Below are positions 4,239 to 21,153 of a DNA stretch of 64,000 nucleotides, piece by piece (position 1 is the first letter of the stretch; each line of letters starts with the position of its first letter). The position numbers were made by a program, and so were the translations under genes. Location of the stretch: the sequence record DRR378314_807; one strand, given 5' to 3'. The notes below the pieces were generated by a model. The model was not told the DNA's origin and did not search any database. It worked only from the letters and a program-made list of their open reading frames with translations.

Positions 4239-4262
4239 CCTTTTAAAATTAAATTCCTTATT

Positions 4263-4275: not shown

Positions 4276-4280
4276 AAATA

Positions 4281-4389: not shown

Positions 4390-6630
4390 ATGGCCGGTTA
4401 TCGTAAGCTTTGGTGGACGTTAATTGCGGTTCTCGCAATTACCTTTGGACTTTTAGGGTATTTTGGAACGGAAGTTTACCGGGAAGCTCCGCCTATTCCG
4501 GATAAGTTCATGAGTACCAATGGCAAAGTCATTGCAACCGAAGAGTCTGTTTTAGACGGGCAAACCGCCTGGCAGTCTGTTGGTGGCATGCAACTGGGTT
4601 CAATTTGGGGGCACGGTGCTTATCAGGCGCCCGACTGGACAGCTGACTGGCTACACCGCGAACTTCTGGCCTGGCTGGACATTCGCGCCAACGAAGTCTT
4701 TGGTAAACCCTACGAACAGCTAGCGGGCTCGCAGCAAAACCAACTAGAGTACGAGCTAAAAGAAGAGTATCGGACCAATACTTACGATAAAGCTTCAGAT
4801 ACCGTTATTCTAAGCGAACGACGCATTCAGGCCATTGAGCAAACCGGCGAGTATTACTCAAAACTGTTTAGCGATGATCCGGAGCTACGCCCTACCCGCG
4901 TTAACTACGCCATGAAAGAAAATACGCTTCCTTCAGAAGCGCGTCGTGCGGTAATGAACGACTTTTTCTTCTGGACAGCATGGGCCGCGTCGACAGAACG
5001 TTTTGACTCAGATATTACTTATACCAACAACTGGCCACATGAAACCTTGATAGATAACGTGCCGAGCGCGGAAAATATTATCTGGTCAATTGTCAGTGTT
5101 ATTCTCTTAATTGCCGGTGTTGGCTTCTTAATCTGGGCATGGGCGTTTTTACGTCAACACGACGAAGAAGACCCTGTTGCTCCAGAGCATGACCCCATAG
5201 CCAAAATTAAGCTCACGCCGTCACAAAAAGCCTTAGGTAAATACCTGTTTATTGTGGTTGCGTTGTTCTCGCTACAAGTTTTACTGGGTGGCTTAACCGC
5301 ACACTACACAGTCGAAGGACAGGAATTCTACGGCATTAATATTTCAGAGTGGTTCCCCTACTCACTAACCCGTACCTGGCACATTCAGGCCGCTATGTTC
5401 TGGATTGCCACCGGGTTCCTGGCTGCTGGTTTATTCCTTGCCCCAATTATTAATGGCGGTAAAGATCCTAAATATCAGAAACTGGGTGTCGATATCCTGT
5501 TCTGGGCACTGGTGTTAGTTGTTGCTGGTACCTTTATCGGTAACTGGTTAGCCATTGCGCAAATTATGCCGGAGCACCTTAACTTCTGGTTAGGTCACCA
5601 GGGCTACGAATACGTCGACTTAGGTCGCTTATGGCAAATTGGTAAGTTCCTCGGTATCGTTTTCTGGCTGGTACTGATGATGCGTTGTGTTGTCGGTGCA
5701 TTCAAAGTCAAAGGCGATAAGAACTTACTGGCATTATTTACCGCTTCAGTTGTTGCCATTGGCCTATTCTATGGCGCTGGCTTCTTCTACGGCGAACGTA
5801 CTCACATTTCTATCATGGAATATTGGCGCTGGTGGATTGTTCACCTGTGGGTAGAAGGTTTCTTCGAAGTGTTCGCAACGGCGTCACTGGCCTTCATTTT
5901 CCACAGCATGGGCTTAGTTTCCCGCCGCATGGCAACCGTGGCTGCGTTAGCATCTGCGTCACTGTTCATGCTGGGTGGTGTGCCAGGTACTTTCCACCAC
6001 TTGTACTTTGCCGGCACAACCACGCCAGTTATGGCCGTGGGCGCTACTTTCTCAGCGTTAGAAGTGGTACCGCTTATCGTACTGGGCTACGAAGCCTGGG
6101 AAAACTACAGCCTGCAAAAACGCGCAACCTGGATGCAACGCATTAAGTGGCCATTACTATGCTTCGTTGCAGTTGCCTTCTGGAACATGCTTGGCGCAGG
6201 TGTACTCGGCTTTATGATCAACCCACCTATTTCGCTGTACTATGTGCAAGGCTTGAACACTACGCCAACTCACGCACACGCAGCTTTGTTTGGTGTATAC
6301 GGCTTCCTGGCGCTTGGTTTCGTGCTGTTGATTCTGCGCTACATTCGTCCGAACCTGCAATTCGACGAAAAACTGATGAAAATGGCGTTCTGGACCATGA
6401 ACATTGGCTTAGCACTAATGCTCTTCACCAGCTTGTTGCCTGTCGGCTTCATTCAGTTTTACGCCGCTGCCAGCGAAGGCTTGTGGTATGCGCGCAGTGA
6501 AGCCTTTATGCAGCAGCCTCTCTTACAGAACCTACGCTGGTTCCGTACGGTTGGCGACATGGTCTTCATCGTGGGTGCGTTAGGTATCAGCTGGCAAGTT
6601 GTAAAAGGCCTAAAACACAAATCTGATTAA
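4390..6630 (+). CDS. norB: quinol-dependent nitric oxide reductase (qNor, single-subunit NorB/NorZ type)
   Basis: 746 aa with GSIWGHGAYQAPDWTADWLHRE, TNNWP, VHLWVEGFFE, GTFHHLYF and HAHAALFGVYG heme/FeB ligand motifs. Confidence 0.95.
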   Translation: MAGYRKLWWTLIAVLAITFGLLGYFGTEVYREAPPIPDKFMSTNGKVIATEESVLDGQTAWQSVGGMQLGSIWGHGAYQAPDWTADWLHRELLAWLDIRANEVFGKPYEQLAGSQQNQLEYELKEEYRTNTYDKASDTVILSERRIQAIEQTGEYYSKLFSDDPELRPTRVNYAMKENTLPSEARRAVMNDFFFWTAWAASTERFDSDITYTNNWPHETLIDNVPSAENIIWSIVSVILLIAGVGFLIWAWAFLRQHDEEDPVAPEHDPIAKIKLTPSQKALGKYLFIVVALFSLQVLLGGLTAHYTVEGQEFYGINISEWFPYSLTRTWHIQAAMFWIATGFLAAGLFLAPIINGGKDPKYQKLGVDILFWALVLVVAGTFIGNWLAIAQIMPEHLNFWLGHQGYEYVDLGRLWQIGKFLGIVFWLVLMMRCVVGAFKVKGDKNLLALFTASVVAIGLFYGAGFFYGERTHISIMEYWRWWIVHLWVEGFFEVFATASLAFIFHSMGLVSRRMATVAALASASLFMLGGVPGTFHHLYFAGTTTPVMAVGATFSALEVVPLIVLGYEAWENYSLQKRATWMQRIKWPLLCFVAVAFWNMLGAGVLGFMINPPISLYYVQGLNTTPTHAHAALFGVYGFLALGFVLLILRYIRPNLQFDEKLMKMAFWTMNIGLALMLFTSLLPVGFIQFYAAASEGLWYARSEAFMQQPLLQNLRWFRTVGDMVFIVGALGISWQVVKGLKHKSD

Positions 6631-6641
6631 CCCTTAATAAA

Positions 6642-6682
6642 CCAGGCTTCTGCAATCGCTGCAGAAGCCTGGCTTTTCTTTT
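6642..6682 (+). terminator. rho-independent terminator after qNor
   Basis: 13-bp stem CCAGGCTTCTGCA/TGCAGAAGCCTGG with a 5-nt loop, followed by CTTTTCTTTT. Confidence 0.85.
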
Positions 6683-6705
6683 GTGAGGCGTTTACTGGAG
6701 GACGT

Positions 6706-6981
6706 ATGAGCCGCAAACCCGATACCAAAACCGCAATGTATCAATTACTCAATGTAATTCGTAAGCACATCCCTTTTGGCTTAAAAGAAGCGGATATGTG
6801 CCAGGGTATTTGTCGTGGCTGCTCTAAAAAAATGATGGAAATGCTGGATGCTGAAGTCAGCCAATGGCAGGCCGACCTGGACAACGAACTGGCAGAACCA
6901 ACCTTAGCGGACTTAGTTTTTATGGAGAAGTTAGCGCGCCGAACCGAGAAAGTTCTTCACCGCAATAAACTGATGAATTAA
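6706..6981 (+). CDS. small hypothetical protein with CX3CX2C motif
   Basis: GGAGG RBS; 91 aa containing CQGICRGC; fills the gap between qNor and the sensor kinase gene. Confidence 0.75.
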   Translation: MSRKPDTKTAMYQLLNVIRKHIPFGLKEADMCQGICRGCSKKMMEMLDAEVSQWQADLDNELAEPTLADLVFMEKLARRTEKVLHRNKLMN

Positions 6982-7055
6982 TCCGCACTTATTTGTTCCC
7001 CTCTTTCGAAATGCTATATCATGTACCGGAACTTTCACTCAGGACGTCGCCCGGA

Positions 7056-8852
7056 ATGATACGCAACGCTTCTATAATTAATGTCTTCAGAGTATCGCTT
7101 GCGCTTATCGTAATTGTTGCCAGCGCCTCTTCTCTCTCTGCGTTCTGGCTTTTGGAAAAATCAGAGCAGGACGCGGAGTTGATTAACGTTGCGGGCTCAC
7201 ACCGAATGAAAGCCTATAAGTTTGCGCTGCAGCTATCTAGCGGCAAGAAAGTTCAGGCCAGCGAAACGGCGCAGGAAATAGATACACTCTGGGAACAACC
7301 TCTACTTCATCGTCACTTCGTAAAAGCCGGCGGTAGTATTCAACAGCTAGCTAAAGACGCTAGAACCGAATGGCAGCGGGTGCACTCGGAAATAGCAGAG
7401 CAGGATTTTGCTCGCTTTTCCCAGCAACAAAGTAACGCCATAGACAACTATGTGAATCAGCTCGACACTCTGGTTGGCCAGCTGCAAGAGCATTCAGAAA
7501 GACGAATGGAGACGGTTCGTAGCTCGCTGGCTTTAGCCTCATTTTTTATCGTTGCCATATTTTTCTTTTTACTTACCGTGCTAAAACGAAAAATCAACCA
7601 ACCGCTTCGACACCTGCTGGCGGTTTCCAAACGTTTGGGTCAGGGCGACTTTACCGCTAAGTCAAAAATCGATAACGAAGATGAAATAGGCCAGCTCTCC
7701 CGCACAATGAACAAGATGTCGGAAACCGTCAGCTACTTTTACGGTGGTCTTGAACGCCGGGTAGAGCAGCAAACTCAGGAACTGTCACGCAAAAACAAGG
7801 TGTTGTCCTTTCTGTACGATACCGCCCGCTCCATTATCGTGCACAGTTATGACTACAATAATTACCAGCAAGTTATTGAAAAGCTCTACGAAATTGGTGA
7901 AGTAAATGACATTGAGTTATGCCTGCTAACGGAAGAAGGCAACCGCCCGTTTTTGCAACTGCAACCGCGTCCCAGTTCACACGAACCCTGTGAGGCCGGT
8001 GACTGCGCTACCTGCCTTAAAGCAGGCCCTGGTGCTTCGGTAATAGAAGACAAACTGGTTTATCGCTTTGTGCTAAAACGAGAAGATCAAAACTACGGTG
8101 TATTAATTGTTCGCTGCGAACAGGGACAGCCTCTGGCGACCTGGCAACAGCAATTGATGAGTTCCACAGCGGACCAGCTTGCCTTGTCGCAGAGCCTGAA
8201 ATCTGAGGAAGAGCAAGTGCGGCGGCTGGCGTTAATGCACGAGCGTACCGTTATAGCCCGTGAACTGCACGACTCACTGGCACAGGCTTTGTCCTACTTA
8301 AAAATTCAGGTTACGCGGCTACACAAGGGGATTGAGAAGAACGATCGCGCCACGATAGATGATGTCAGTAACGAGCTGCGAGAGGGCCTAAACTCAGCCT
8401 ACCGGCAGTTGCGGGAGTTGCTCACGACCTTCCGCTTAAAAGTAGATGGTTCAGGACTTTACAGCGCATTACAGACGACGGTTAAGCAGTTAACCGAACA
8501 AAGTAATATGGTTGTCCATCTGGATTATCGCCTTAATAATATTCCACTGGTGCCCCACGAAGAAATCCATTTATTGCAAATTATTCGTGAAGCCAGTCAG
8601 AATGCGGTAAACCACAGTCAGGGAAGCGAAGTACACATTAGCCTATCGCAGCCCAGTGGACAGGACGTGGAACTTAAAATTACTGACGATGGCATCGGTT
8701 TACCTGAGAATGCGGAAAAGGTTAATCATTACGGGTTAGCCATTATGCAGGAACGCAGTCGTAATCTTGGTGGTGAAATAAAAATCTCAAGACTGGAAAG
8801 CGGCGGCACGGAAGTTTGCTTCACCTTTACACCGGACTATTTGCTGCAATAG
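7056..8852 (+). CDS. nitrate/nitrite sensor histidine kinase, NarX/NarQ family
   Basis: P-box INVAGSHRM, two TM helices, HAMP, Cys-containing central region, H-box ARELHDSLAQALSY, ATPase DDGIG and HYGLAIMQER. ATG 7056 is preferred over TTG 6993. Confidence 0.9.
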   Translation: MIRNASIINVFRVSLALIVIVASASSLSAFWLLEKSEQDAELINVAGSHRMKAYKFALQLSSGKKVQASETAQEIDTLWEQPLLHRHFVKAGGSIQQLAKDARTEWQRVHSEIAEQDFARFSQQQSNAIDNYVNQLDTLVGQLQEHSERRMETVRSSLALASFFIVAIFFFLLTVLKRKINQPLRHLLAVSKRLGQGDFTAKSKIDNEDEIGQLSRTMNKMSETVSYFYGGLERRVEQQTQELSRKNKVLSFLYDTARSIIVHSYDYNNYQQVIEKLYEIGEVNDIELCLLTEEGNRPFLQLQPRPSSHEPCEAGDCATCLKAGPGASVIEDKLVYRFVLKREDQNYGVLIVRCEQGQPLATWQQQLMSSTADQLALSQSLKSEEEQVRRLALMHERTVIARELHDSLAQALSYLKIQVTRLHKGIEKNDRATIDDVSNELREGLNSAYRQLRELLTTFRLKVDGSGLYSALQTTVKQLTEQSNMVVHLDYRLNNIPLVPHEEIHLLQIIREASQNAVNHSQGSEVHISLSQPSGQDVELKITDDGIGLPENAEKVNHYGLAIMQERSRNLGGEIKISRLESGGTEVCFTFTPDYLLQ

Positions 8853-8873
8853 TGAAAGACACCGTCCACACTC

Positions 8874-10250
8874 TTAAGGGTTATAGAACTGGCCGCGTCG
8901 GCGCAAATAGACAAAACCGTTTAACAAGAGCCCGATAACATAGAAAACAATGAAGTCGATATAAACGGTGTCCATGTTTTGCGACTGCAAAGCCCAGGCA
9001 AAGCGCAAGGGCAAATAAACCGCACCCAGCATAGCGATAGTGCCCGCCCAAATTAACACTCTGTGAGTATAAGTTCTGGGGAAGACTTTGGTCATACTGA
9101 CAACGACTGAACCGTTCCCCAAGGCGCTGGTAAAAATCAGTCCCAGCATGCTGATGAAGAAAGGCTCAAAGTAGAGTTCAGTGGCACCATGTTGAGCAAA
9201 ATACATGTAGCGGCCAGCCAAAGCCCCGAATATCATCATCAGTAACAGACTCACTTGCGTTATCAGAGCGCCACCAAAAATAGTTGCCAGCCAACGTCCG
9301 AAAGGTCTGGCTAACAGAGCAATAAAAGGCCCCATCCAAACCAGAATTAAGGTGCTGTAACCAAACACAAATTCCAGCATCAGTGGCAATGCCATAGTAA
9401 AGCCGATAAAGCTACCAAACGTCATGTTGTACAGAATACTGCAATACCAGACGTGACCATTGTGAGCCAGCAGCTTTCTTAAAGTGACTTTGGGTAATGA
9501 CTGTTTGTGGTTTGACAATAAAGCAGCCGCGGCGCTCAAAATGGCTGTCAGGCCAAAAAGAATAGCCCAGACAAAACTGAAATTGTTTAGCAAAATAGTC
9601 TGGCCGGCCTCGATGCGAGCGAAAAAATGACCACTGCTGCGCTCGAGTATGAGAGCGGAATCTACCGCAGCTAACTGCCAGGTAGCCAGCAGAGGCACAA
9701 CCAGCTGAGCTAAAAACAGAGAGAATATCATCATGCCGATAACCAGGCTCATGGACAACGGCAAGGGGATCATAACCTTTGACTGGCGGGTTAAGTCGAA
9801 TGCAGGCGCAAACATCATGCAGCCCATGCCTGACCCCGCAGCTAAAGCAACCAATATAGGATAGCTCAGCTGCACAGCTGAAAATTGCACAAAACTGATA
9901 ATACTCATTAGCAGCATAAGAGTGGCAATAACTGTAGGCATCCATCGTCCGAGGATATTGACTAGTAAAGTTCCTAACAACTTGGACACAGCACCGCTTG
10001 CCCCAGCAATAGCGACTAATGACAGCAACTGAACCGGGCTTAAGTTAAGGTTTGATTTTGCCAGTAATACAACGATAACGCTCCAGCTTGCCCAAAATGT
10101 GACACCAAGCAATAACACACTCAGCGTTAACCCACGGGAAAGCGCGCGAGAACCGAGGTAATCACGAACATCGCTCATTGTATTCGCTTGCGAAACTTTA
10201 CCCATAACATTGCAATTCGTTGTCATATTCACAGAGTAAGGACTTTGCAA
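8874..10250 (-). CDS. divergent NarK/NNP-family MFS transporter
   Basis: About 12 TM helices; ILYNMTFGSFIGF, ARPFG, LGNGS and C-terminal YLRRRGQFYNP; located between NarX/Q and NarL/P genes. Start uncertain (10250, 10226 or later). Confidence 0.75.
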   Translation of the reverse strand: MQSPYSVNMTTNCNVMGKVSQANTMSDVRDYLGSRALSRGLTLSVLLLGVTFWASWSVIVVLLAKSNLNLSPVQLLSLVAIAGASGAVSKLLGTLLVNILGRWMPTVIATLMLLMSIISFVQFSAVQLSYPILVALAAGSGMGCMMFAPAFDLTRQSKVMIPLPLSMSLVIGMMIFSLFLAQLVVPLLATWQLAAVDSALILERSSGHFFARIEAGQTILLNNFSFVWAILFGLTAILSAAAALLSNHKQSLPKVTLRKLLAHNGHVWYCSILYNMTFGSFIGFTMALPLMLEFVFGYSTLILVWMGPFIALLARPFGRWLATIFGGALITQVSLLLMMIFGALAGRYMYFAQHGATELYFEPFFISMLGLIFTSALGNGSVVVSMTKVFPRTYTHRVLIWAGTIAMLGAVYLPLRFAWALQSQNMDTVYIDFIVFYVIGLLLNGFVYLRRRGQFYNP

Positions 10251-10314
10251 CTATGAGGGTTTGGATACAACTCACATCAAGAGTTAGTTTTAGGTTTATT
10301 ATGGAGTAAGCAGC

Positions 10315-10330
10315 TACCTCTTTTGGAGTA
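10315..10330. promoter_or_regulatory. NarL/NarP 7-2-7 site
   Basis: TACCTCT-tt-TGGAGTA in the divergent narK-like/narL-like intergenic region. Confidence 0.6.
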
Positions 10331-10426
10331 GAATTTTATTCAGAAGTGTAAGTAATGCTTGTCTGCGGTGAATTTGTGCACAAGCTATGTCAAACTAACC
10401 AGGTTAAATTTATAAGGGAGAACACT

Positions 10427-11086
10427 ATGACAACCGAAGCGGCCAGCATTATGCTCGTGGATGATCATCCACTACTGCGCAAAGGATTAAAGCAGTTGAT
10501 TGCGATGGAAGATGACATGACCGTTGTCGCAGAGGCCAGTAATGGCCCGGACGCCTTGCTGCTAGCAGTAGAGCACGACCCTGACTTAATCGTTCTGGAT
10601 TTGAACATGCAGGGTATGGATGGCATAGAAACTCTGAAGAGACTCCGCGACTCAGGAGTCACCTCGCGGATCATCATGTTAACAGTGAGTGATGCTGATG
10701 ATGATGTGGTTGCGGCAATTACCAATGGTGCTGACGGTTACCTGCTAAAAGACATGGAACCCGAACTGCTGTTGGAACAGATTCATCGCGCTGTTACCGG
10801 CAAAATGGTTTTAAGCGAAGCCATTACCGAAATACTGGCGACCGCACTGCGCCAACCAACGCAATCAACCACTTCACAATTGAGTAACTTAACCAATCGC
10901 GAGCACGAGATTTTAAGCTTAATTGCCAAAGGCATGAGTAATAAGGTCATTGCCCGCGAACTGGATATTTCAGATGGCACAGTTAAAGTACACGTAAAGC
11001 ACCTATTGAAGAAACTGGGGCTACGCTCCCGGGTTGAGGCCGCCGTATGGATGGTCAACCTACAGGGTAATAAAGCGCCTCAATAA
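10427..11086 (+). CDS. nitrate/nitrite response regulator, NarL/NarP family
   Basis: VDDHPLLRKG, LDLNM, LTVSD, GADGYLLKD, and LuxR HTH GMSNKVIARELDISDGTVKVHVK. RBS AGGGAG precedes ATG 10427. Confidence 0.92.
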   Translation: MTTEAASIMLVDDHPLLRKGLKQLIAMEDDMTVVAEASNGPDALLLAVEHDPDLIVLDLNMQGMDGIETLKRLRDSGVTSRIIMLTVSDADDDVVAAITNGADGYLLKDMEPELLLEQIHRAVTGKMVLSEAITEILATALRQPTQSTTSQLSNLTNREHEILSLIAKGMSNKVIARELDISDGTVKVHVKHLLKKLGLRSRVEAAVWMVNLQGNKAPQ

Positions 11087-11151
11087 GGACCGATAATAAT
11101 CGCCCGTAATCGCGAGGGTAATCTGCCAACACCTACCCTCGCTACCTCTCC

Positions 11152-11193
11152 TTGATTTGCGTCAAGCTGCCAATTCCCCGATTCTGCTATTCT
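11152..11193 (+). promoter_or_regulatory. FNR-dependent class II promoter of trhP-yfhL
   Basis: TTGAT-ttgc-GTCAA at 11152-11165 and -10 TATTCT at 11188-11193 (box centred near -41.5). A NarL-type heptamer TACCTCT lies at 11143-11149. Confidence 0.8.
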
Positions 11194-11223
11194 TCACCGT
11201 TAATTTGGTGATACAGGTGTTTT

Positions 11224-12522
11224 ATGTCAGCCGCAGATTTCCGTCCTGAGTTACTTTGTCCTGCCGGTAGCCCTGAAGCTATGCGTATGGCTTTTGCTTA
11301 CGGTGCAGATGCCGTTTATGCTGGCGAACCTCGCTATAGCCTGCGGGTACGCAATAACAGCTTTACCCTGGAAAACTTGGGCGAATGCATTAACGAAGCT
11401 CATCAGCAGGGAAAGCGTTTTTATGTTGTGGTCAATATTGCGCCGCACAACGCCAAGCTGGCCCGTTTTGTTGAACACATTTGCACCATTGTCGACATGA
11501 AGCCCGATGCCTTAATTGTGTCTGACCCCGGCGTGGTTATGTTGCTGCAACAGTACTTTCCCGACCAACCTCTGCACTTATCGGTCCAGGCCAACACGGT
11601 CAACTGGGCTGCACTTCTGTTCTGGCAACAACAAGGCATTGAGCGCGTTATTTTGTCGCGCGAACTGGGACTCAAAGAAATTGCTGAAATGCGCAAGCAA
11701 GTTCCTGACATGGAAGTTGAAGTATTTGTACACGGCGCACTCTGCATGGCATACTCCGGGCGCTGCCTGCTGTCTGGTTACATGAACAAGCGCGACCCAA
11801 ACCAAGGCGCCTGCACCAATGCCTGTCGCTGGGGGTATGAGGTGCATGAAGCAAAGGAAAACGCTGTGGGTCAATATGAACCGGTACTGCTTGGTGATCC
11901 GAAGCGTCCACAGGATTTAATGTTGCTGGATGAGGACATACACGGCTCCTACATCATGAACTCGAAGGATTTACGCGCGGTTGAATATGTAAAGGACTTA
12001 GTTGAGATGGGTGTGCATTCCTTAAAAATTGAAGGCCGCACTAAGTCAGACTATTACATTGCCAGAACAGCTCAGGTTTATCGGCGCGCAATTGACGACG
12101 CCGTAGCCGGTAAGCCTTTTAATAACGAGCTGCTTAGCGAACTGGAAGGTATGGCAAATCGAGGGTTTACTGCGGGCTTCTTACAACGCCATACGCCACA
12201 AGACTTGCAGAATTATGAACGCTCGCACAGCGAAGGCGAGCATATTCTGGTCGGACAACTGGCAGCAGCAACCGCCGACAACACCTTATATGAGGTTGAG
12301 GTGAAAAATGGCTTTTCTATTGGTGATGAACTGCTGCTGATGACACCCAAAGGTAATTATCCGTTTCAATTGGCCCGCATGGAGTCGCTTAAAAACGAGG
12401 CCATGATCCGCGCGCCCGGTTCCGGTTATCAAGTGAAACTGCAGACACCGGTTAGCATCGAGAAGAACGATATTCCCTTTTGTTTTCTGATAAAAGAAGC
12501 AACCGTGAGGAAAGTAGCATGA
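11224..12522 (+). CDS. trhP: U32-family tRNA 5-hydroxyuridine synthase (YegQ/TrhP)
   Basis: PELLCPAG, GADAVYAGEPRYSLRVRNN, HGALCMAYSGRCLLS, CTNACRW, MNSKDL and SLKIEGRTKS motifs. Confidence 0.88.
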   Translation: MSAADFRPELLCPAGSPEAMRMAFAYGADAVYAGEPRYSLRVRNNSFTLENLGECINEAHQQGKRFYVVVNIAPHNAKLARFVEHICTIVDMKPDALIVSDPGVVMLLQQYFPDQPLHLSVQANTVNWAALLFWQQQGIERVILSRELGLKEIAEMRKQVPDMEVEVFVHGALCMAYSGRCLLSGYMNKRDPNQGACTNACRWGYEVHEAKENAVGQYEPVLLGDPKRPQDLMLLDEDIHGSYIMNSKDLRAVEYVKDLVEMGVHSLKIEGRTKSDYYIARTAQVYRRAIDDAVAGKPFNNELLSELEGMANRGFTAGFLQRHTPQDLQNYERSHSEGEHILVGQLAAATADNTLYEVEVKNGFSIGDELLLMTPKGNYPFQLARMESLKNEAMIRAPGSGYQVKLQTPVSIEKNDIPFCFLIKEATVRKVA

Positions 12523-12716
12523 TTGTTATTAACGATGGCTGTATTAACTGCGATGTTTGCGAACCCGAGTGCCCAACCGAAGCGATTTCAATGGGCGACA
12601 GCATTTACGAGATAAATCAGGATAAGTGCGTAGAGTGTGAAGGCTATTACGATACACCGAACTGCTACGCGGTATGTCCGGTAGAGGCTGTCGATATTCT
12701 ACAAGATAAGGGGTAA
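12519..12716 (+). CDS. yfhL: 2x[4Fe-4S] ferredoxin, YfhL family
   Basis: CINCDVCEPECP and CVECEGYYDTPNCYAVCPV; ATGA overlap with the trhP stop. Confidence 0.88.
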   Translation: MIVINDGCINCDVCEPECPTEAISMGDSIYEINQDKCVECEGYYDTPNCYAVCPVEAVDILQDKG

Positions 12717-12765
12717 CTCTCATCTCTCTTTAGAGGTAGATAAATTTGCTGGAGGGTTTTGTATA

Positions 12766-13491
12766 GTGAACCAGATCAATAATTCAGCAGATGAGATGAC
12801 TATGCGTACCCCAATTCAATGTAGCCAATGCAGCATGCAATCAATTTGCGTTCCCGCCGGTTTAGTGCCAACCGATGTCGAAATTCTTGATAAATGCAGC
12901 CGCGAACCGCACCTTTTTAACAAGCGTAATGTTGTTTTTAGTGAAGGGCAAAAACTCAATTCAGTTTTCGCAATAAAAAGCGGCTCGGTGAAGTGCTACA
13001 CCATTGACAGCAATGGTAAGCAGCAAATTACCAGCTTTCATATGGTTGGCGACATTGTCGGTCTTGAGAGCTTAGCCAGCGGTTCAGCAGCTACATATTG
13101 TGAGACCATGGAAACCTCTATGCTGTGTGAAATTAGACTGAGCAAATTATTTGCGCAGGAACTTCCTAAAGTTGAAAGTAACCTTCTGCAGCTTATGAGT
13201 CGACGCTTAGCAAATTGCAGCAAACATTACTTAAACGTTGTTAATACCAGTGCTGAACAGAAAGTTGTGGCCTTTTTACTTTCAATAAGCACGCACATGC
13301 ATCAACATGGATTGTCCCGTAGTGAGTACCGATTGCCAATGACACGCACGGATATTGCTAATTATCTGGGCCTGGCTGTTGAAACTGTCAGCCGTATTTT
13401 CACTGCCCTGAAAGAACAGCAGCTGATTAACACCGAGCAATCCATTCTCACTATTAATGACTTTACGGCTCTGGAAAGCCGAGTCGCTTAG
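12766..13491 (+). CDS. fnr: O2-sensing Crp/Fnr-family regulator, FNR type
   Basis: N-terminal [10 protein letters not shown], central Cys in SMLCEI, and [22 protein letters not shown]. Confidence 0.85.
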
Positions 13492-13511
13492 TACTTTTTT
13501 CAGGAGGTTAC

Positions 13512-14684
13512 ATGTCATCCGCTGGTTTCAATTGGTCCGATCCGCTCAACTGGCAAAATGCTTTGTCAGATGAAGAAAAAATGATTCAGGAAAGCGCTCA
13601 TCAGTACGCTCAGGAAAAGTTGATGCCTCGCGTACTGGAGGCCAACCGCAACGAGAACTTTGATCGCCAGATTATGAACGAACTGGGTGAGATGGGGCTA
13701 CTCGGCGCGACCTTACCGGAAGAATATGGCGGCAGCGGTGTGAACCATGTTAGCTATGGCCTTATTGCGCGAGAAATTGAACGTGTCGACAGCGGCTACC
13801 GCAGTGCTATGAGTGTGCAATCCTCTTTGGTTATGCATCCTATTTACACCTTTGGTACCGAGGCTCAGCGCAAGAAATACTTACCTAAATTAGCCAGCGG
13901 TGAATGGGTTGGGTGTTTCGGCTTAACAGAACCCGATTCCGGCTCTGACCCGGCCAGTATGCGCACCACCGCCAAGCGCACTGACAAAGGTTATGTGCTG
14001 TCTGGCTCTAAAATGTGGATAACAAACTCGCCTATTGCGGATGTGTTTGTCGTCTGGGCAAAACTCGACGGCGAAATTCGCGGTTTTGTACTGGAAAAAG
14101 GCATGAAAGGCCTGAGCGCCCCCAAAATTGACGGTAAGTTCTCGCTACGTGCGTCTATTACCGGCGAAATTGTTATGGATGGCGTTGAGGTATCTGAAGA
14201 CCACATTTTCCCGGAAGTTAAAGGCTTAAAAGGCCCGTTTAGTTGCCTGAATAAAGCGCGCTATGGCATTGCCTGGGGCTCGCTCGGCGCAGCAGAGTTC
14301 TGCTGGCACGCAGCACGACAATATACGTTAGAACGCAGTCAATTTGGTCGCCCGCTGGCAGCAAACCAGTTAATACAGAAAAAACTGGCGGACATGCAGA
14401 CCGAAATTAGCCTGGGATTATTAGGCTGCCTGCAAGCTGGGCGCGAGCTGGATAAGGGTACACTGAACCCAATAGCGATTTCTCTCATTAAGCGTAACAG
14501 CTGTGGCAAGGCGCTGGATATTGCCCGCCAGGCGCGCGATATGCACGGCGGTAACGGCATTGCCGATGAGTACCACGTTATTCGCCATGTGATGAATTTA
14601 GAAGCGGTTAATACCTACGAAGGTACACACGATATTCACGCGTTAATTCTGGGTCGTTCACAGACCGACATTCCTGCGTTTTAG
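13512..14684 (+). CDS. gcdH: glutaryl-CoA dehydrogenase
   Basis: [43 protein letters not shown] and [21 protein letters not shown] motifs. Confidence 0.92.
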
Positions 14685-14698
14685 TAGCGAGGCTTACC

Positions 14699-16885
14699 AT
14701 GCGTTGCGATATTGAGGGCTGGCAACAGGACTTTATTGAGCGACTGGCGCGGGCAGACTTGCCTGCGCCGCAATCGCGGCACTCAAATTTAAACGACTCA
14801 GATCTATTCGCACTTTTTCACAGCCAGGTTCTGAGCCGCTTCATTGATATCGAATCGCGTCGCCTGCAGCGCCAGGGCAAAAGCTTTTATACCATTGGTA
14901 GCGCAGGACACGAAGGTAACGCTGCAGTTGCAGCGGCTTTACGAGTAACCGATCCGGCTTTTCTGCACTATCGCAGCGGCGCATTCTTCTTGCAGCGAGC
15001 AAAGCAGCTTGAGGGTTCGCACTCGTTATATGACCTCATGCTGTCGTTTTGTGCCTCCAGTGAAGACCCTATTTCAGGCGGTCGCCACAAGGTTTTAGGC
15101 AGCCTGGCACTGAATATACCGCCACAAACCTCGACCATAGCGTCGCACTTGCCCAAAGCCATGGGTACCGCCTACGCCATTGGGCTCAGTAAACGCTTAA
15201 AGCAAGCTGGCCAGTGGCCGGATGATGCCATTGTGCTTTGTAACTTTGGCGACGCCTCAGCAAACCACTCCACCGCCGTAGGGGCACTTAACGCCACCGG
15301 CTGGAGCGCTTATCAGGGCATGCCAATGCCTATTCTCTATGTGTGTGAAGACAACGGCATTGGTATTTCTACCTCGACTCCCAGAGGATGGACAGCTCAT
15401 CAGCTTCAGAATTACCCAGCAATACGCTACTACTATGCAGACGGCGCTAATGTCAGTGAAACTTACGCAGTAGCCCGTCAGGCAGCTGAGTATATCAGGC
15501 GTACGCGAAAGCCCGCTATTTTGCATTTGAAGACTCAGCGCTTCTTTGGTCATGCCGGTGCCGATGCAGAAGTTGCCTATCGCAGCAATGAATCGATAGA
15601 ACAAAGTTTTGAAACTGACGTGCTTTTGCAAAGTGCAGCGCAAGTTATTGAGCGAGGACTTTGTACCGGCATTCAACTCTCGGAAAAAGCACAATGCTGG
15701 TTACAGCGCATTCGTCGGGTGGGCACTGAGGCCTCTGCCCGACCCAGGCTCGAATGCGCAGAGTCGGTCATGGCTTCCATTGTGCCAAAAACTCTGGCCG
15801 ACGATACTCAGCCGCTAACCAGCACCCAGCAACAGGCGGTATTTGCGTTTGATAAGCGCAACTTTAAGAAAGCACAGCCGTTAGGCAAAATGATTAACTG
15901 GGCATTGCACGAAATATTGGCGCGATACCAGAACACCGTGGTATTTGGTGAAGATGTTGGCAAAAAAGGTGGGGTATACCATGTGACTCACCACTTATTC
16001 GATCACTTTGGCGCAAATCGTGTGGTGAATACCTTACTGGACGAGCAAAGCATTCTTGGCTTAGCCATGGGCATGGCGCAGCAAGGCTTTCTGCCCATAC
16101 CAGAAATACAGTTCCTGGCTTATGTACATAATGCCGAAGACCAAATTCGGGGCGAAGCCGCAACTCTGCCCTTTTTCTCTAATGGTCAGTACCACAACGG
16201 TATGGTCATTCGTATTGCCGGTCTGGCCTACCAGAAAGGCTTTGGCGGACATTTTCACAATGACAATTCCTTCGCCGTATTTCGTGATATTCCGGGCGTT
16301 ATTGTGATGTGCCCGTCGAATGGGCAGGACGCAGTACTCATGATGAGACAAGCGGTTCAGCTTGCTCACTGCCAAAAACGCTTAGTGATTTTTCTGGAGC
16401 CTATTGCGCTTTATATGACCCGCGACTTACTCGCAGAGGGCGATAAAGGCTGGCTGCATGAGTTTCCTTCAGCTTCCGCACCGCTGCCAGCTTTAGGCGA
16501 ACCTTCCCGTTATGGTGAAGGTAATGAGCTGGTTATTATCACCTATGGCAATGGTTATTACTTAAGCCGGCAGGCGTGTAGCGAACTCAAGCTTGAACAG
16601 CGCATTCGCATTCTGGATTTACGCTACTTAGTACCACTGGACATTGAAAAGATAGTGGCGGCCGTTGGCTCTGCGAAACACATTCTGGTTGTCGACGAAT
16701 GCCGTAACCGCGGTTCGTTAAGTGAAGAGCTGGTAACCGCTCTGTACGAACATCGGCGCGACTGGCAGCGTGTTGACCGCATTACCGCCAAAGACAGTTT
16801 TATTCCTCTGGGTTCAGCCGCTTATAAGGTTTTGCCTGGAAAAGAAGACATTCTTCAGTATTTACAGGAGCATTTAGGCCAATGA
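14699..16885 (+). CDS. ThDP-dependent 2-oxoacid dehydrogenase E1, fused alpha+beta subunits
   Basis: Alpha part: GSAGHEG, HYR and GDA...EDN ThDP motif. Beta part: VFGEDVGKKGGVY, DEQSILG, EIQF, GGHFH and IFLEP. Confidence 0.85.
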   Translation: MRCDIEGWQQDFIERLARADLPAPQSRHSNLNDSDLFALFHSQVLSRFIDIESRRLQRQGKSFYTIGSAGHEGNAAVAAALRVTDPAFLHYRSGAFFLQRAKQLEGSHSLYDLMLSFCASSEDPISGGRHKVLGSLALNIPPQTSTIASHLPKAMGTAYAIGLSKRLKQAGQWPDDAIVLCNFGDASANHSTAVGALNATGWSAYQGMPMPILYVCEDNGIGISTSTPRGWTAHQLQNYPAIRYYYADGANVSETYAVARQAAEYIRRTRKPAILHLKTQRFFGHAGADAEVAYRSNESIEQSFETDVLLQSAAQVIERGLCTGIQLSEKAQCWLQRIRRVGTEASARPRLECAESVMASIVPKTLADDTQPLTSTQQQAVFAFDKRNFKKAQPLGKMINWALHEILARYQNTVVFGEDVGKKGGVYHVTHHLFDHFGANRVVNTLLDEQSILGLAMGMAQQGFLPIPEIQFLAYVHNAEDQIRGEAATLPFFSNGQYHNGMVIRIAGLAYQKGFGGHFHNDNSFAVFRDIPGVIVMCPSNGQDAVLMMRQAVQLAHCQKRLVIFLEPIALYMTRDLLAEGDKGWLHEFPSASAPLPALGEPSRYGEGNELVIITYGNGYYLSRQACSELKLEQRIRILDLRYLVPLDIEKIVAAVGSAKHILVVDECRNRGSLSEELVTALYEHRRDWQRVDRITAKDSFIPLGSAAYKVLPGKEDILQYLQEHLGQ

Positions 16886-17883
16886 AACAAACTGCCGTTA
16901 TCGTCTGCCCCGGTCGTGGTGGTTACAACAAACCTGAATTAGGCTCTATTACTGGACGCCATTTGCCAAAGCAAAGCGATCTCATCAATCAATTAGATAA
17001 AACCCGCGAAAACGAAGGTTTTATTAGCGTCTCTGAGCTAGACCAAAAAGCAAAATTCGACCATCGCCTGCATTTAAAACCCGAGAATTCGGCGTCCCTA
17101 ATTTTTGCGGCCGGTTACGCCGACTTTAAAGCCGTTGACCCCGAGCAGTATGACATAGTGGCAGTGACCGGAAACTCCATGGGCTGGTATACCGCTCTGG
17201 CCTGTGCCGGTGTATGGCAGCCGGAAAACGCAATGTCTATTGTCACCGACATGGCAAAGCGAACTGCCGCAGCCGACGGTGCGCAGCTTATTTACCCAAT
17301 TATGAACGAGCAGTGGCAACCGGACAAAACCCGTGAAAAAGCCGTCAGTCAGATGTTAGAACAACACGCCGGTGAGCTGTTTTTGTCCATTCGTTACGGC
17401 GGGTACGTTCTGTTGGCGGGTACCCAGGATGCTGTTACTGCTGCCAGTAAAGCACTGGAGCCAGTTGATAACCGCTTCCCTATGATTTTACCCGGCCATG
17501 CGGCATTTCATTCGCCGTTAATGAAAGAAGCATCAGATCAGGCTCTTTCCGTGTGGGACAGCAGTCATTTCAGACAACCCGAACTGCCACTCATAGACGG
17601 CCGAGGTGTTATTTGGGAGCCGCCCGGCTGCCATTTGGATGCCCTGCAACGCTATACTTTTGGGCACCAGGTGACCGAGTATTACGACTACACCAAAGCC
17701 ATTACAGTTGCCTTAAGAGAGTTCGCACCGGATAAATTATTACTGCTGGGGCCTGGCAACAGCCTGGGTGGCGCCACCGGACAGAGCCTGGTGGCAGCCA
17801 ACTGGCGAAACCTTTCCAGTAAAGATGACTTTACCCAGCGACAAGAAAGTGAAGAAGCCCCGGTTATTAGCCTGGGGCTATAA
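16882..17883 (+). CDS. FabD-like (malonyl-CoA:ACP transacylase fold) acyltransferase
   Basis: CPGRG, nucleophile elbow GNSMG, AAFHSPLM and LLGPG; ATGA overlap with the E1 fusion gene. Confidence 0.8.
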   Translation: MKQTAVIVCPGRGGYNKPELGSITGRHLPKQSDLINQLDKTRENEGFISVSELDQKAKFDHRLHLKPENSASLIFAAGYADFKAVDPEQYDIVAVTGNSMGWYTALACAGVWQPENAMSIVTDMAKRTAAADGAQLIYPIMNEQWQPDKTREKAVSQMLEQHAGELFLSIRYGGYVLLAGTQDAVTAASKALEPVDNRFPMILPGHAAFHSPLMKEASDQALSVWDSSHFRQPELPLIDGRGVIWEPPGCHLDALQRYTFGHQVTEYYDYTKAITVALREFAPDKLLLLGPGNSLGGATGQSLVAANWRNLSSKDDFTQRQESEEAPVISLGL

Positions 17884-17888
17884 ATTCC

Positions 17889-20387
17889 CTAGTGAATACC
17901 TTTGCTGTTGAGATGCCCTTTATAAGCCATATCGCTTTTCATAATGTGGTTCATGAGCCAGGCTTTTACGAACTCCAATAGCTCATCAATCACGTCTTCG
18001 TGGCTATCAACCCGGTGTTTGAAGCGCATCACATCCTGCACTAAGTCGCGGTGCTTAAGCTTGTGGTTTTCTAAGTCAGGATAGCCGTTACGCTCCATTA
18101 GCAACTCTTCGTAGTTAAAGTGCGTAGCCGTGTAGTTAATTAACGAGTCCACCAGACGCTGTAACGCATGCTGATCACCATCGCGAAGCTTCAGGCGATA
18201 CAGCTCATTAGCAATGTAAATTAGGCGCTGGTGCTGACGGTTAATTTCTTCAATGCCCACATCCAGCTTCGGCGACCATTCAATGAGTACGTCTTGTTCT
18301 GAAAGACGTCGCTCTATCACGTCTTTTTCAATGTAATAGCGGTCGCCAAGAGACTTAATTTCGCCGCCTAAAGTCGTTAATTGAGCTGAGCTTTCTAACG
18401 CTTCTTGCGAGCGTTCATCAACAATTCGTGCACTTTCAGAAAGTGAATTAATGTTTTCCTGAATATTTATGGTTACCGCAGACTGCTCTTCCGTTGTGGA
18501 GGCTATCTGAATATTCAGGTCGTTAATGACACCAACATTTTCGACAATGTCAGATAATGAACTTGCAGCCCGGTTCGCTTGTTCAACATTTTCGCCCGCC
18601 AGGGTTTTATTGCGCTCCATGGTTTGCACTGCATTGTTTGTGTTGGTCTCCAGCCGACCAATGACACTTTGTATTTCGCCAGTGGAAGCCTGTACCCGTT
18701 GTGCTAACTGTCTGACTTCATCAGCTACAACCGCAAAGCCCCGACCCGACTCACCGGCTCTGGCGGCTTCAATAGCAGCATTCAGCGCCAGCAAATTGGT
18801 CTGGTCGGCAATGTCATTAATGGTCAGTAATATTTTCGAGATAGACTGGCTATCTTCAGATAATGTTTTTATAACACGCTGAGATTCGGACACTTCTTGC
18901 TCGAGTCTCTGGATGGCAGTCACCATGGTATGAACAACCTGCTGCCCATTTTTAGCGGATATCAAGGTGTTATCAGCTTCTGTTGCGGCTTTCTGAGTTG
19001 ACTCTGACACTTCACTTATCGCCGACGTCATTTGCTCGACTGCCGCAGCTGCGCTTTGCATTTGCGAAGCCTGAGCTCTTGCCCGTTCGGCCAGCTCTTT
19101 AATTGCCTGATAATTACCGTTACCCAGCCTGTCCATGCCGTCGCTCGACTTGCGTATAGCATCCACTGAGTAACTGGTCTCAATAGCGACCGAGTTCAGG
19201 TAATGAGTTATTTTCGACAGCTCATCATGCCCCTCTGTCGAGCTCAAACTATTTAGGTCGCCATTTGCCAGCTGTTTGGCCATTTTAATATTGGCAGACA
19301 CCGCCCGGTAAATTCCTAAATATAAGCTGGTAAATAACAGTAACTGCAATAACAACACCCCGACAATCAAAGCCGCGTTGGTCCAAATCACCGTATCTAA
19401 TTTTGTCAGGCGCTGTTCAAGTCTCGAGTGATAAGCCGGAATAACGCTGTCGTAAAAAGCAAATAACGCCCCTGTCGCGGCAGTTCCTTCACGGAAGAAG
19501 TCACTGGCCGACATATTGCGTTCCATTAGTTTGCTAGAAGCAGTTTCGCTAAATAATCTTAACTGCTGTTCGGCTGCCTTAGCCTGCATCAACAAGCCCT
19601 GGTCGTTAACTTCTTCGGATAAACTCTCGACAACGTCCACAAAGTCGGAAACCTGGTTTTCCAGCACGTAGCTTAAAATGGTGACATCCTGCTGTAGTTC
19701 GGGGCTTTCCTTTCCGCTTAACCATTGAGCTCCCAACCCCCTTAAGCGACCTCCCTGCTCAACTAACTGCGGCAGTTCTTCAACAGAAAGACGTGCTAAG
19801 AACAAGCTAGGCAAATCATTTTCCAACAGTTGTTGGGAGTTTTTGCCAAGCAGCTTTAACACACTTTGGACCTTTTCCAAAAGCTCAGTATGCTGGTGAA
19901 AAGTGTCCGTTGAACCGCTTAAGCCCTGCCATTTACGGCGCAGCTCCAGCAATAATGATTCTGGCAGCAAATGACTTTGGCCTGGTTTACTTTGGAGGTC
20001 ATCCAGAGCACTAAAATGACGATTAATGGCTTGCACTGAACGGTTTATTTCACTGGAAAACTCTCGTTTTTGAGCTTCACTCCCAGTCATTCCCCGGTGC
20101 ATGGCGATATGCTCTAAAAGCCCTCTTAATTCTGGCCAGTATTGAGCGGCTTCATGCTTTTGTTCAACCTGATGGCTTTTTTCCAGTGAGTCATTAACCA
20201 TCAACGAACTCAGTACAATAACCGGAATAAAGAGTAAAAAACCAATCAAGCTAAATTTTCGTCTAAAACTCAGTAAATTAAATAACTTTTGGACAGGGCG
20301 AGTTAACCAATCGAGCCACTTCATAACCACTCCACTACAGGCAGAATCTACAACCACAAACGGCTTATTCTGCTCATTCATCGGCAT
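17889..20387 (-). CDS. methyl-accepting chemotaxis protein with C-terminal bacteriohemerythrin domain
   Basis: Two TM helices, HAMP and MCP core [34 protein letters not shown]. The C-terminus has hemerythrin ligands QH, HFNYEE, HKLKH and HIMKSD. Start uncertain. Confidence 0.9.
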
Positions 20388-20432
20388 TAGTCACACATAA
20401 TACAGTGTTGTTGGTTGCCAAGTGGCTTTTGC

Positions 20433-20446
20433 TTGATCGTGATCAA
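20433..20446 (-). promoter_or_regulatory. perfect FNR box upstream of the MCP-hemerythrin gene
   Basis: TTGAT-cgtg-ATCAA (10/10), overlapping the deoD stop codon; candidate -10 AACACT at 20409-20404. Confidence 0.82.
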
Positions 20447-21153
20447 TAAACCAGTAAACTTTCTAAAGTCATCTTGGTCATTTCGTTAAAAGCGGTCTGT
20501 CTTTCATTAGCCGACAAGCCATTGCCCGTTCTTATTTCATCAGAAACTGTCATAACGGCTAAAGCCTGTTTCTTATGAATCGCGGCTACCGCATAAAGAG
20601 CCGCTGCCTCCATATCTAGCGCCAGAACATTCATGACTTCCAGCCGAGACTCCAGTTTTTTGTCCGGATGGTAGAAACTGTCAGTAGAAAATATATTGCC
20701 AACAGCTACACGCTGGTTCTTCTTCTGACAATAACCGACGAACTCACTTAACAATTTGTAATCTGCAATTGCTGCAAAGTCATAACCGCCAAACAGCTTT
20801 TGGTTCATTGAAGAGTCAGTACAGGCTCCCTGGGCAACGACCAGATCACGCAAATTAAGGTTTGCTGATACGGCACCGCAAGTGCCTACCCGCACTAAGC
20901 GCTCAACACCGAAATGCTGAAACAGCTCCTGTGCATACAGCGCGCAGGAGGGCATCCCCATCCCGGATCCCATCACCGACACGGGTGTACCGCGAAATTG
21001 CCCGGTAAATGCCAGCATATTTCGGGTATCACTTATGAGTTCTGCACTGTCCAGATGTGTTTCAGCAATATGTCTTGCCCTTAACGGGTCACCAGGAAAC
21101 AAGCAAAGTTCAGCAAAATCACCGGCTTTTGCCGAAATGTGTGGTGTGGTCAT
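20443..21153 (-). CDS. deoD: purine nucleoside phosphorylase, DeoD type
   Basis: MTTPHISA, PGDPLRA, GSGMGMPS, RVGTCGA, DMEAAALY and ERQTAFNEM motifs. Confidence 0.92.
   Translation of the reverse strand: MTTPHISAKAGDFAELCLFPGDPLRARHIAETHLDSAELISDTRNMLAFTGQFRGTPVSVMGSGMGMPSCALYAQELFQHFGVERLVRVGTCGAVSANLNLRDLVVAQGACTDSSMNQKLFGGYDFAAIADYKLLSEFVGYCQKKNQRVAVGNIFSTDSFYHPDKKLESRLEVMNVLALDMEAAALYAVAAIHKKQALAVMTVSDEIRTGNGLSANERQTAFNEMTKMTLESLLVY

Follow-up and report, generated by a model that had tools for sequence, protein, structure and literature searches.

How a cell provides its glutaryl-CoA dehydrogenase with glutaryl-CoA is the question raised by a three-gene operon in a 64,000-nt stretch of DNA from sequence record DRR378314_807 (hereafter the window), whose close relatives are Idiomarina. 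The operon joins gcdH to a fused E1, the decarboxylating component of 2-oxoacid dehydrogenases, and to an acyltransferase (AT) of the FabD fold. The three genes form a single unit on the + strand, from 13512 to 17883:

13512–14684, + strand: gcdH, glutaryl-CoA dehydrogenase, 390 amino acids (Pfam Acyl-CoA_dh_N, Acyl-CoA_dh_M and Acyl-CoA_dh_1)
14699–16885, + strand: E1 of 2-oxoacid dehydrogenase type with its alpha and beta parts fused, 728 amino acids (Pfam E1_dh, residues 43–332; Transket_pyr, 396–566; Transketolase_C, 607–706)
16882–17883, + strand: FabD-fold Ser-His acyltransferase (AT), 333 amino acids (AlphaFold2 [AF2] model, Foldseek and hhalign)

This operon points to an undescribed route from 2-oxoadipate to glutaryl-CoA in a marine bacterium. 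In the reading that we favor, with a probability of about 0.4, E1 is the E1 of a 2-oxoadipate dehydrogenase whose lipoyl domains and E3 are borrowed in trans, and AT is an accessory glutaryl transacylase bound to E1.

A Conserved Module without an Adjacent E2

A sequence-only reading of the window had described three tightly coupled genes, and the coordinates bear this out: gcdH and E1 are spaced by 14 bp (14685–14698), and the start of AT overlaps the stop of E1 in an ATGA junction. The same reading had found E2, E3, a lipoyl domain, acyl carrier protein (ACP), and ketosynthase missing nearby, which was confirmed. A Pfam scan of the open reading frames (ORFs) from 8874 to 21153 detected none of the five, ten further ORFs of the window likewise lack them, and a tblastn search of the 64 kb with the three E2s of G001 gave no match. 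G001 is the nearest genome compared (2.8 Mb in one contig), and its operon genes are 98–100% identical to those of the window (98% for AT and E1).

Orthologs were counted at E-values of at most 1e-30 for AT, 1e-100 for E1, and 1e-150 for GcdH. AT was found in 2 of 400 genomes drawn evenly from the class, in 127 of the 301 genomes and 37 of the 59 genera of the GTDB family to which G001 belongs, and in 4 of the 12 genomes of the window's own genus. The 301 family genomes yielded GcdH in 228 cases and E1 in 144, and every one of the 127 genomes with AT also holds E1. The sequence-only reading had proposed the co-occurrence of the trio as a check, and gene order was compared as well. We compared 36 loci, consisting of one 19-kb region for each of 35 AT-bearing genera plus the single match from outside the family; gcdH, E1, and AT are colinear on one strand in 35 of them, the exception (L055) having E1–AT only. 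Five distant loci, from alphaproteobacteria and other taxa, contain the full trio (two loci), E1–AT (two), or AT alone (one). We further examined 80 metagenome loci, 70 of which include enough upstream DNA; each of these 70 has E1 as the gene directly upstream of AT. Of the same 80, 44 have gcdH as a same-strand neighbor, 8 have instead a divergent acyl-CoA dehydrogenase gene (product 50–71% identical to GcdH), 3 have neither, and 25 are too short to show it. Finally, ORF clustering over 122 loci left only five widely shared families, namely E1 (115), AT (104), GcdH (101), a LysR regulator in divergent orientation (73), and a protein resembling ArgR (22); lipoyl proteins, E2, E3, ACP, and ketosynthase are not among the conserved neighbors in these 122 loci. 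These data indicate that gcdH–E1–AT is a conserved module.

The loci with a divergent acyl-CoA dehydrogenase are L124, L135, L158, L169, and L179, plus L129, L163, and L173. In five of them the identity to the window GcdH is only 50–54%, so that these five may hold a different dehydrogenase, acting perhaps on a different acyl group.

GcdH and the Fused E1

GcdH aligns over residues 1–390 with the solved bacterial GcdH structures 3eom and 3d6b (616 bits, E-value 2e-184) and end to end with human GCDH (1sir, 584 bits), whereas other acyl-CoA dehydrogenase classes score at most 233 bits. By these scores, the gcdH product is a true glutaryl-CoA dehydrogenase. Glutaryl-CoA is the sole known substrate of GcdH, and 2-oxoadipate's oxidative decarboxylation is described as the known direct route to it.

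In E1, all three Pfam domains lie above their cut-offs within one chain. Its closest solved relatives are E1 subunits of the alpha-beta type, from pyruvate dehydrogenase (PDH) and branched-chain 2-oxoacid dehydrogenase (BCKDH), with 72 bits for the alpha part and 145 bits for the beta part. All 34 solved relatives with an E-value of at most 1e-5 are PDH- or BCKDH-type alpha or beta subunits, and no SucA or DHTKD1 chain occurs among them at this threshold; to judge from sequence, E1 is at most a functional analog of the DHTKD1-family E1a. None of the curated NCBIfam models attains its cut-off on E1. The following elements are invariant in A2, our alignment of 36 E1 family members (mean column identity 66%):

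15248–15355, + strand: E1 residues G184-D185 to E217-D218-N219, which we take to be the thiamine diphosphate (ThDP)/Mg-binding motif; aligned with the GDG...NN of solved E1 alpha chains
15551–15553, + strand: E1 His285, catalytic His of the alpha part; aligned with the His before Ser of human E1b alpha and with the His of Thermus thermophilus E1 alpha
16256–16258, + strand: E1 His520, catalytic His of the beta part; aligned with His128 of Geobacillus stearothermophilus E1p beta (1w85_B)

H128-beta is proposed as the likely general acid/base for lipoate acylation, and H271-alpha, the equivalent of His285, is placed beside the dithiolane ring (PMC2663715). E1 itself appears to be lipoyl-dependent, and its Pfam scan detected no extra domain able to carry lipoate. 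Because the operon encodes no lipoyl domain, the lipoyl arm, and the E3 that re-oxidizes it, would have to come in trans from one of the cell's canonical 2-oxoacid dehydrogenase complexes. Pairing with an E2 gene of its own, and usually an E3 gene, is a hallmark of the alpha-beta E1s; this E1 has no such pairing in the window, nor among the conserved neighbors in the 122 loci. In solved alpha-beta E1s, the E2 binding domains dock on Transketolase_C.

A FabD-Fold Enzyme with Altered Active-Site Residues

The AF2 model of AT that was built from an alignment has a predicted local distance difference test (pLDDT) of 95.8 and replaced a single-sequence model, discarded at a pLDDT of 35.3. The top 50 Foldseek matches of this model are MCAT or AT domains (template modeling [TM] score up to 0.76), those to MCAT/FabD structures at the top having TM scores of 0.71–0.76 at 17–21% identity, with the FabD-fold acyl hydrolase PksD at ranks 33 and 35, and hhalign pairs AT with the FabD of G001 itself at 97.8% probability and 23% identity. 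AT matches no Pfam family at an E-value of at most 0.001, PF00698 included, and scores 48 bits against NCBIfam fabD (TIGR00128), whose cut-off is 260.9. Two family alignments, A1 (47 sequences) and A3 (36 sequences), together with alignments to FabD, locate the residues of the active site:

16915–16917, + strand: AT Arg12, at the position of FabD Gln11 in the P-G-x-G loop (P-G-Q-G in FabD) by hhalign with the G001 FabD; invariant in A1 and A3
17176–17178, + strand: AT Ser99, nucleophile of the invariant motif T-G-N-S-M-G-W-Y; its aligned counterpart is the GHSLG Ser of Escherichia coli FabD (2g1h) and of the G001 FabD; invariant in A1 and A3
17251–17253, + strand: AT Met124, at the position of the malonate-binding Arg (E. 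coli FabD Arg117) in the alignments with 2g1h and the G001 FabD; Met in at least 90% of the family
17509–17511, + strand: AT His210, catalytic His; placed opposite its E. coli FabD equivalent in the alignment; invariant in A1 and A3

The GNSMG motif and the loss of the malonate-binding Arg, both noticed by eye in the sequence-only reading, are thereby upheld, the Arg position being held by Met124. The family also conserves a C-terminal tail (K314, F317, Q321) and an E-F-A-P motif. AT looks like a diverged, active FabD-fold enzyme that is distinct from the housekeeping FabD, and G001 encodes a separate, ordinary FabD. That the positive charge has moved, from position 124 to 12, would be in keeping with a longer acyl group of dicarboxylic type. 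AT has no lipoyl domain and is not a member of the E2 family (PF00198, with its CAT-like core); it could at most act like an E2 core.

Predicted Binding of AT to E1

E1 and AT are predicted to bind each other. Complex prediction with E1 residues 62–728 and AT, run without the supplied alignments, scored 0.86, 0.85, and 0.86, the best of three controls scoring 0.00; the pLDDT of the partners was at least 92, and the contacts agreed by 100% between runs. Scores at this level are attained by 51 of 78 solved complexes and by 2 of 108 mismatched pairs, and we know of no solved E1–FabD complex that the model might have memorized. The predicted interface involves the following stretches:

15011–15031, + strand: E1 residues 105–111, predicted AT-docking surface, within a short insertion that solved E1 alpha chains do not have (a gap in the alignments)
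15659–15739, + strand: E1 residues 321–347, main helix region of the predicted AT-docking site, from the complex-prediction interface
17695–17730, + strand: AT residues 272–283, core of the predicted E1-docking surface, a helix ending in the family-specific E-F-A-P, from the complex-prediction interface

The short insertion in E1 (residues ~102–108) thus contributes to the predicted docking site. On AT, the predicted contacts are residues 4, 93, 241–249, 272–283, and 309; E280 and P283 of the docking helix are invariant, and V276, F281, and A282 are 81–86% conserved. At the 17 predicted contact residues of E1, E1s from genomes without AT match the consensus of AT-linked E1s at 0.31, vs 0.72 elsewhere in the protein. 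For instance, T108 is present in 92% of AT-linked E1s vs 12% of AT-less ones, and the corresponding values are 78% vs 6% for R337, 50% vs 0% for R340, and 58% vs 6% for V341.

A Candidate Route from 2-Oxoadipate to Glutaryl-CoA

In the reading that we favor, 2-oxoadipate arising from the breakdown of lysine, and in some relatives of tryptophan, would be decarboxylated by the fused E1, which would reductively glutarylate a lipoyl arm. AT, sitting on the alpha part of E1, would then use its Ser99–His210 dyad to take the glutaryl group from the dihydrolipoyl arm and pass it to CoA, standing in for the catalytic core of E2 on an acyl group to which the borrowed E2 may be poorly suited, and GcdH would convert the resulting glutaryl-CoA to crotonyl-CoA. 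We infer the substrate of E1, which lipoyl arm serves as donor, which way the transfer runs, and what AT uses as acceptor. It is conceivable, if doubtful, that E1–AT goes further and constitutes a minimal 2-oxoadipate dehydrogenase without an E2 core, in which covalent acyl-serine transfer off a borrowed lipoyl arm is a convergent replacement of the CAT fold.

The metabolic context lends mild support to a 2-oxoadipate module, through three kinds of genes. Family-III CoA-transferase (PF02515) was not found in any of the three Idiomarina genomes searched, so that these three show no evident Pseudomonas-type conversion of glutarate to glutaryl-CoA. The 3-hydroxyanthranilate dioxygenase is present in both operon-bearing genomes searched outside Idiomarina and does not rise above its cut-off in three Idiomarina genomes. 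Lastly, a protein resembling HGLS/DUF1338 (PF07063, 265–281 amino acids), with a partial match to the 2-oxoadipate dioxygenase/decarboxylase family, is encoded near E1–AT in 4 of 42 loci (L014, 9319–10134; L069, 8066–8896; L063, 1633–2478; L072, 889–1686), and its gene adjoins an aldehyde dehydrogenase gene in two of these four. The saccharopine dehydrogenase family (PF03435) is uninformative, being present in all five genomes, with or without the operon.

We also considered whether E1–AT occupies the slot of Pseudomonas gcoT. This idea found no support within this family: all 20 E1-less gcdH loci compared have gcdH with neither E1 nor AT, and the ten neighbors scanned in E1-less gcdH loci, out of many, included no CoA-transferase.

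Genomes without AT or E1, and Alternative Readings

A number of observations weigh against our proposal. One group concerns the rest of the cell. G001 has three canonical E2s, with two lipoyl domains each and with genes far away from the operon, and one GcvH. With three full E2s at hand, the cell could form glutaryl-CoA on a canonical E2 core, the part played by DLST in mammals. It is therefore the operon that is E2-less, not the cell, and the E2-less architecture put forward in the sequence-only reading stands for the operon and the window and falls for the nearest genome. That the substrate of E1 is 2-oxoadipate is, moreover, drawn from the linkage to gcdH alone. A second group concerns the distribution of the genes. 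AT is missing genome-wide, at its threshold of 1e-30, from 17 of the 144 E1-bearing genomes; these 17 are the exact difference between the E1 and AT counts, and the tallies by genus concur. In 16 AT-less E1 loci (of 17), no AT was found even at an E-value of 1e-3. Their E1s are nevertheless intact, with ratios of nonsynonymous to synonymous substitution rates (dN/dS) of 0.04–0.11 in the 4 of 10 pairs with unsaturated dS; the AT-linked E1s give 0.04–0.14 (3 of 4 pairs), and the pairs that gave no ratio, owing to saturated dS, are 6 of the 10 AT-less, 4 of the 4 mixed, and 1 of the 4 AT-linked ones. Because AT-less E1s are intact and under purifying selection, E1 can work without AT, whose role must be dispensable or replaceable. 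Of 12 genomes in the window's genus, 8 have neither E1 nor AT; gcdH is nonetheless kept in 7 of the 8, so that its retention does not require E1–AT. The last group concerns the interface. The AT-less E1s come from about five genera, and the contrast in interface drift thus rests on few independent events; the contact residues of AT are no more conserved than the rest of AT (0.68 vs 0.65); the predicted interface on E1 lies on the C-terminal helices of the alpha part; and, as weak evidence, no fused E1–AT, AT–lipoyl, or AT–ACP protein was found at an E-value of at most 1e-20 among 5314 candidates.

Apart from its E2s, G001 also encodes a BCKDH-type E1 alpha and a SucA-type E1. On C1 of this genome (1610342–1610911 and 1798026–1798574), E2s with two lipoyl domains each lie beside the SucA-type E1 and the BCKDH-type E1 alpha.

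The loci themselves display several states. The 16 AT-less loci consist of 11 with gcdH–E1 and 5 with E1 alone, and the genes that follow their E1s are convergent or unrelated (GGDEF–EAL, NnrS, galactokinase). A 267-amino-acid ORF after E1 in L099 and L100 was examined as a cryptic AT and ruled out (hhalign probability 0.1%, no Pfam family). Two loci from Idiomarina metagenome-assembled genomes (MAGs), L017 (7955–8015) and L018, show a clean deletion of ~3.07 kb relative to 14702–17776 of the window. It spans from just past the E1 start codon to about codon 299 of AT and leaves a short remnant ORF after gcdH, in which the E1 start region is joined to the last ~33 codons of AT; the fnr-like gene upstream (see below) and gcdH are intact in both. 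Genus g329 contains gcdH–E1–AT (one genome, L078), gcdH–E1 (five genomes, L086–L090), and gcdH alone (five loci, L188, L196–L198, and L201). The same GGDEF–EAL gene family flanks each of these three states, which therefore seem to be states of one locus, a natural series of gain or loss. Where gcdH stands alone, glutaryl-CoA may come from a side activity of the 2-oxoglutarate complex; activities of the 2-oxoglutarate and 2-oxoadipate complexes are described as overlapping in mammals (PMC9198357). In such a graded scheme, E1 would add a dedicated decarboxylase, and AT a dedicated off-loading step. Were E1–AT to work without an E2 core, the gcdH, gcdH–E1, and gcdH–E1–AT states would record the stepwise assembly or decay of a dehydrogenase complex.

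Because lineages that have gcdH–E1 alone keep E1 under selection, we treat AT as an accessory and not as a necessity, and the obligatory replacement of E2 by AT, as envisaged in the sequence-only reading, does not survive the 17 AT-less genomes. A somewhat unlikely step further is that E1 works wholly through canonical E2 and E3 encoded elsewhere, like DHTKD1 with DLST and DLD, and that AT binds E1 for some other task; by analogy, AT might hydrolyze or clear wrongly acylated lipoyl arms or CoA, or pass the acyl group to a non-CoA acceptor. FabD-fold acyl hydrolases are found in trans-AT polyketide synthases, and PksD is among the structural matches of AT; the three E2s of G001 with their two lipoyl domains each, the Transketolase_C domain that E1 retains, on which E2 docks in solved E1s, and the selection on AT-less E1s all speak for this. 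However, AT occurs only with this E1 (127 of 127 genomes, 70 of 70 metagenome loci) and is predicted to dock on it, so that a direct role in the product flow of E1 fits better than a general clean-up, and the move of the Arg from 124 to 12 would suggest a specific carboxylated acyl group and not broad hydrolysis. At the opposite extreme, the system could be truly independent of E2, a free lipoyl protein such as GcvH being the sole carrier and AT the sole, obligatory replacement of E2. The single GcvH of G001, the lack of E2 in operon and window, and the predicted binding of E1 and AT are in line with this, yet we consider it very improbable: E1 is kept under selection in the 17 of 144 genomes that lack AT, no gcvH or other lipoyl gene is conserved nearby in the 122 loci, and nothing singles out GcvH among the possible carriers, which include six lipoyl domains on E2s. 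The choice of GcvH in the sequence-only reading accordingly finds no backing in the gene neighborhoods.

E1 might also act on a substrate other than 2-oxoadipate, either another 2-oxoacid or an alpha-hydroxyketone, in which case the link to gcdH would reflect a different glutaryl-CoA/crotonyl-CoA pathway or shared regulation. E1 is a deep branch, with 72 and 145 bits to its best solved relatives, of PDH or BCKDH, and with no curated NCBIfam model at cut-off; E1–AT occurs without adjacent gcdH in L012, L014, and L055 and in 3 of 55 informative metagenome loci, and E1 is alone in 5 of the 16 AT-less loci. We nonetheless find this improbable, since gcdH is immediately upstream in 35 of 36 loci and, counting 44 adjacent and 8 divergent cases, accompanies E1–AT in most of the 55 metagenome loci, and since GcdH has one known substrate, of which 2-oxoadipate decarboxylation is the known direct source. 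There remains the possibility that AT is an ordinary malonyl-CoA:ACP transacylase paralog standing beside E1 by chance. This is what the names imply, relatives of AT being annotated publicly as "malonyl CoA-ACP transacylase" and automatically, in the Protein Atlas, as "ACP S-malonyltransferase", and AT does have the FabD fold. We give this hardly any credence: the malonate-binding Arg has become Met, the fabD model yields 48 bits where 260.9 are called for and PF00698 is not matched, the genome has a normal FabD elsewhere, synteny with E1 is near-absolute, and neither ACP nor ketosynthase is a conserved neighbor. The label "malonyl CoA-ACP transacylase" is almost certainly wrong for the AT family.

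Surroundings and Expression of the Operon

A regulator gene overlooked in the sequence-only reading stops 20 bp upstream of gcdH:

12766–13491, + strand: FNR/CRP-family regulator whose N terminus has a C-x2-C-x5-C motif (Pfam HTH_Crp_2, Crp and cNMP_binding)

Its product scores 196.6 bits against NCBIfam Fnr, under the cut-off of 228. This gene is kept upstream of gcdH in Idiomarina loci, and in most other genera a divergent LysR regulator takes its place (30 of 42 loci; 73 of 122 loci). It closes a set of anaerobiosis and nitrate genes (1704–13491), directly downstream of which the gcdH operon is located:

1704–3542, − strand: NrdD-like
4390–6630: NorB-like nitric oxide reductase
6993–8852: NarX-like kinase
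8874–10250, − strand: NarK-like transporter
10355–11086: NarL
11224–12522: TrhP
12480–12716, + strand: small Cys-rich ORF between trhP and the fnr-like gene, with two CxxCxxCxxxCP-type motifs, resembling a 2x[4Fe-4S] ferredoxin

The ferredoxin-like ORF has 78 amino acids when read from its first TTG, an internal ATG start (~65 amino acids) being likelier. On the other side of the operon, a gene converges on AT:

17889–20387, − strand: methyl-accepting chemotaxis protein (MCP) with a C-terminal hemerythrin domain

The stop codons of AT and of this MCP gene are 5 bp apart, so that there is no space for a free-standing terminator after AT. The genes downstream of the operon encode this hemerythrin-MCP, DeoD, and an MMPL transporter. 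At other loci, an ArgR-like repressor gene (~159 amino acids) lies on the same strand downstream of AT (22 of 122 loci, e.g., L054, 8348–8827, and L070, 10268–10747). L013 (8001–9005), from a Rhodobacteraceae MAG, is the one locus with AT and without E1; its AT has as neighbors a molybdopterin oxidoreductase, a methyltransferase resembling MttB, and a sensor kinase.

Metatranscriptome contigs from four runs (one sample, one study) cover the whole stretch from the fnr-like gene to AT (30 of 30 bins) and bridge the fnr–gcdH and E1–AT junctions. These contigs do not prove a single transcript and may include DNA, and they are a weak indication that the operon is expressed.

Comparison with Known Systems

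To our knowledge, an E2 core of the CAT fold makes the transfer to CoA in every 2-oxoacid dehydrogenase system described, and the FabD fold is so far known only with phosphopantetheine carriers. A literature search, the coverage of which leaves out most subscription journals, gave no description of a FabD-like protein paired with a 2-oxoacid dehydrogenase E1, or of this operon. If our proposal is true, the transfer to CoA would have found a new solution in a FabD-fold enzyme on E1, and the FabD fold a new class of substrate in lipoyl arms. A gap in how bacteria break down lysine and tryptophan, the step from 2-oxoadipate to glutaryl-CoA outside Pseudomonas-type routes, would then be closed as well, for a large set of gammaproteobacteria from the sea and for some alphaproteobacteria. 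The polymorphism of gcdH, gcdH–E1, and gcdH–E1–AT inside single genera offers ready-made comparisons.

Each component resembles a known one and departs from it. The window E1 has the domain order, the ThDP motif, and both catalytic His of the heterotetrameric BCKDH and PDH E1s (1w85, 1um9, 1dtw), but it is fused in one chain, has no adjacent E2 or E3, and carries the short insertion at ~102–108. AT shares with FabD/MCAT (TIGR00128, PF00698) the fold and the places of the Ser-His dyad, at 17–23% identity; FabD has GHSxG, Arg117, and Gln11 where AT has GNSMG, Met124, and Arg12, and the genes linked to AT are E1 and gcdH instead of fab genes.

As regards gene order, the gcdR–gcdH–gcoT arrangement of Pseudomonas putida places a LysR regulator next to a gcdH operon in which the second function is the supply of glutaryl-CoA (PMC6667623). 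The divergent LysR beside gcdH in 73 of 122 loci is a likeness by position. In P. putida, however, the supplier is a CoA-transferase acting on glutarate, whereas here it would be E1–AT, and Idiomarina has the FNR-like gene upstream of gcdH instead of a LysR gene.

The mammalian DHTKD1–DLST–DLD system carries out the reaction that we propose for the window E1, from 2-oxoadipate to glutaryl-CoA upstream of GCDH. DHTKD1 is described as an E1 without E2 and E3 of its own that borrows DLST and DLD (PMC9367764; 10.1101/2020.01.20.912931; PMC9198357), and the window E1 would resemble it in this respect. DHTKD1 is a SucA-like homodimeric E1, however, whereas the window E1 is of the fused alpha-beta type, and the mammalian 2-oxoadipate dehydrogenase has no FabD-fold partner such as AT.

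A second likeness to the proposed E1–AT pair is offered by the actinobacterial OdhA, in which E1 is joined to an acyltransferase module and the lipoyl domain comes from another complex. OdhA borrows its lipoyl domains from E2p. Decarboxylation and succinyl transfer are described as taking place on one OdhA polypeptide (PMC10415282). The transferase of OdhA is a CAT-fold E2 core fused to a SucA-type E1, whereas the one in the window would be a Ser-His enzyme of the FabD fold, a protein of its own with a predicted docking site on an alpha-beta E1.

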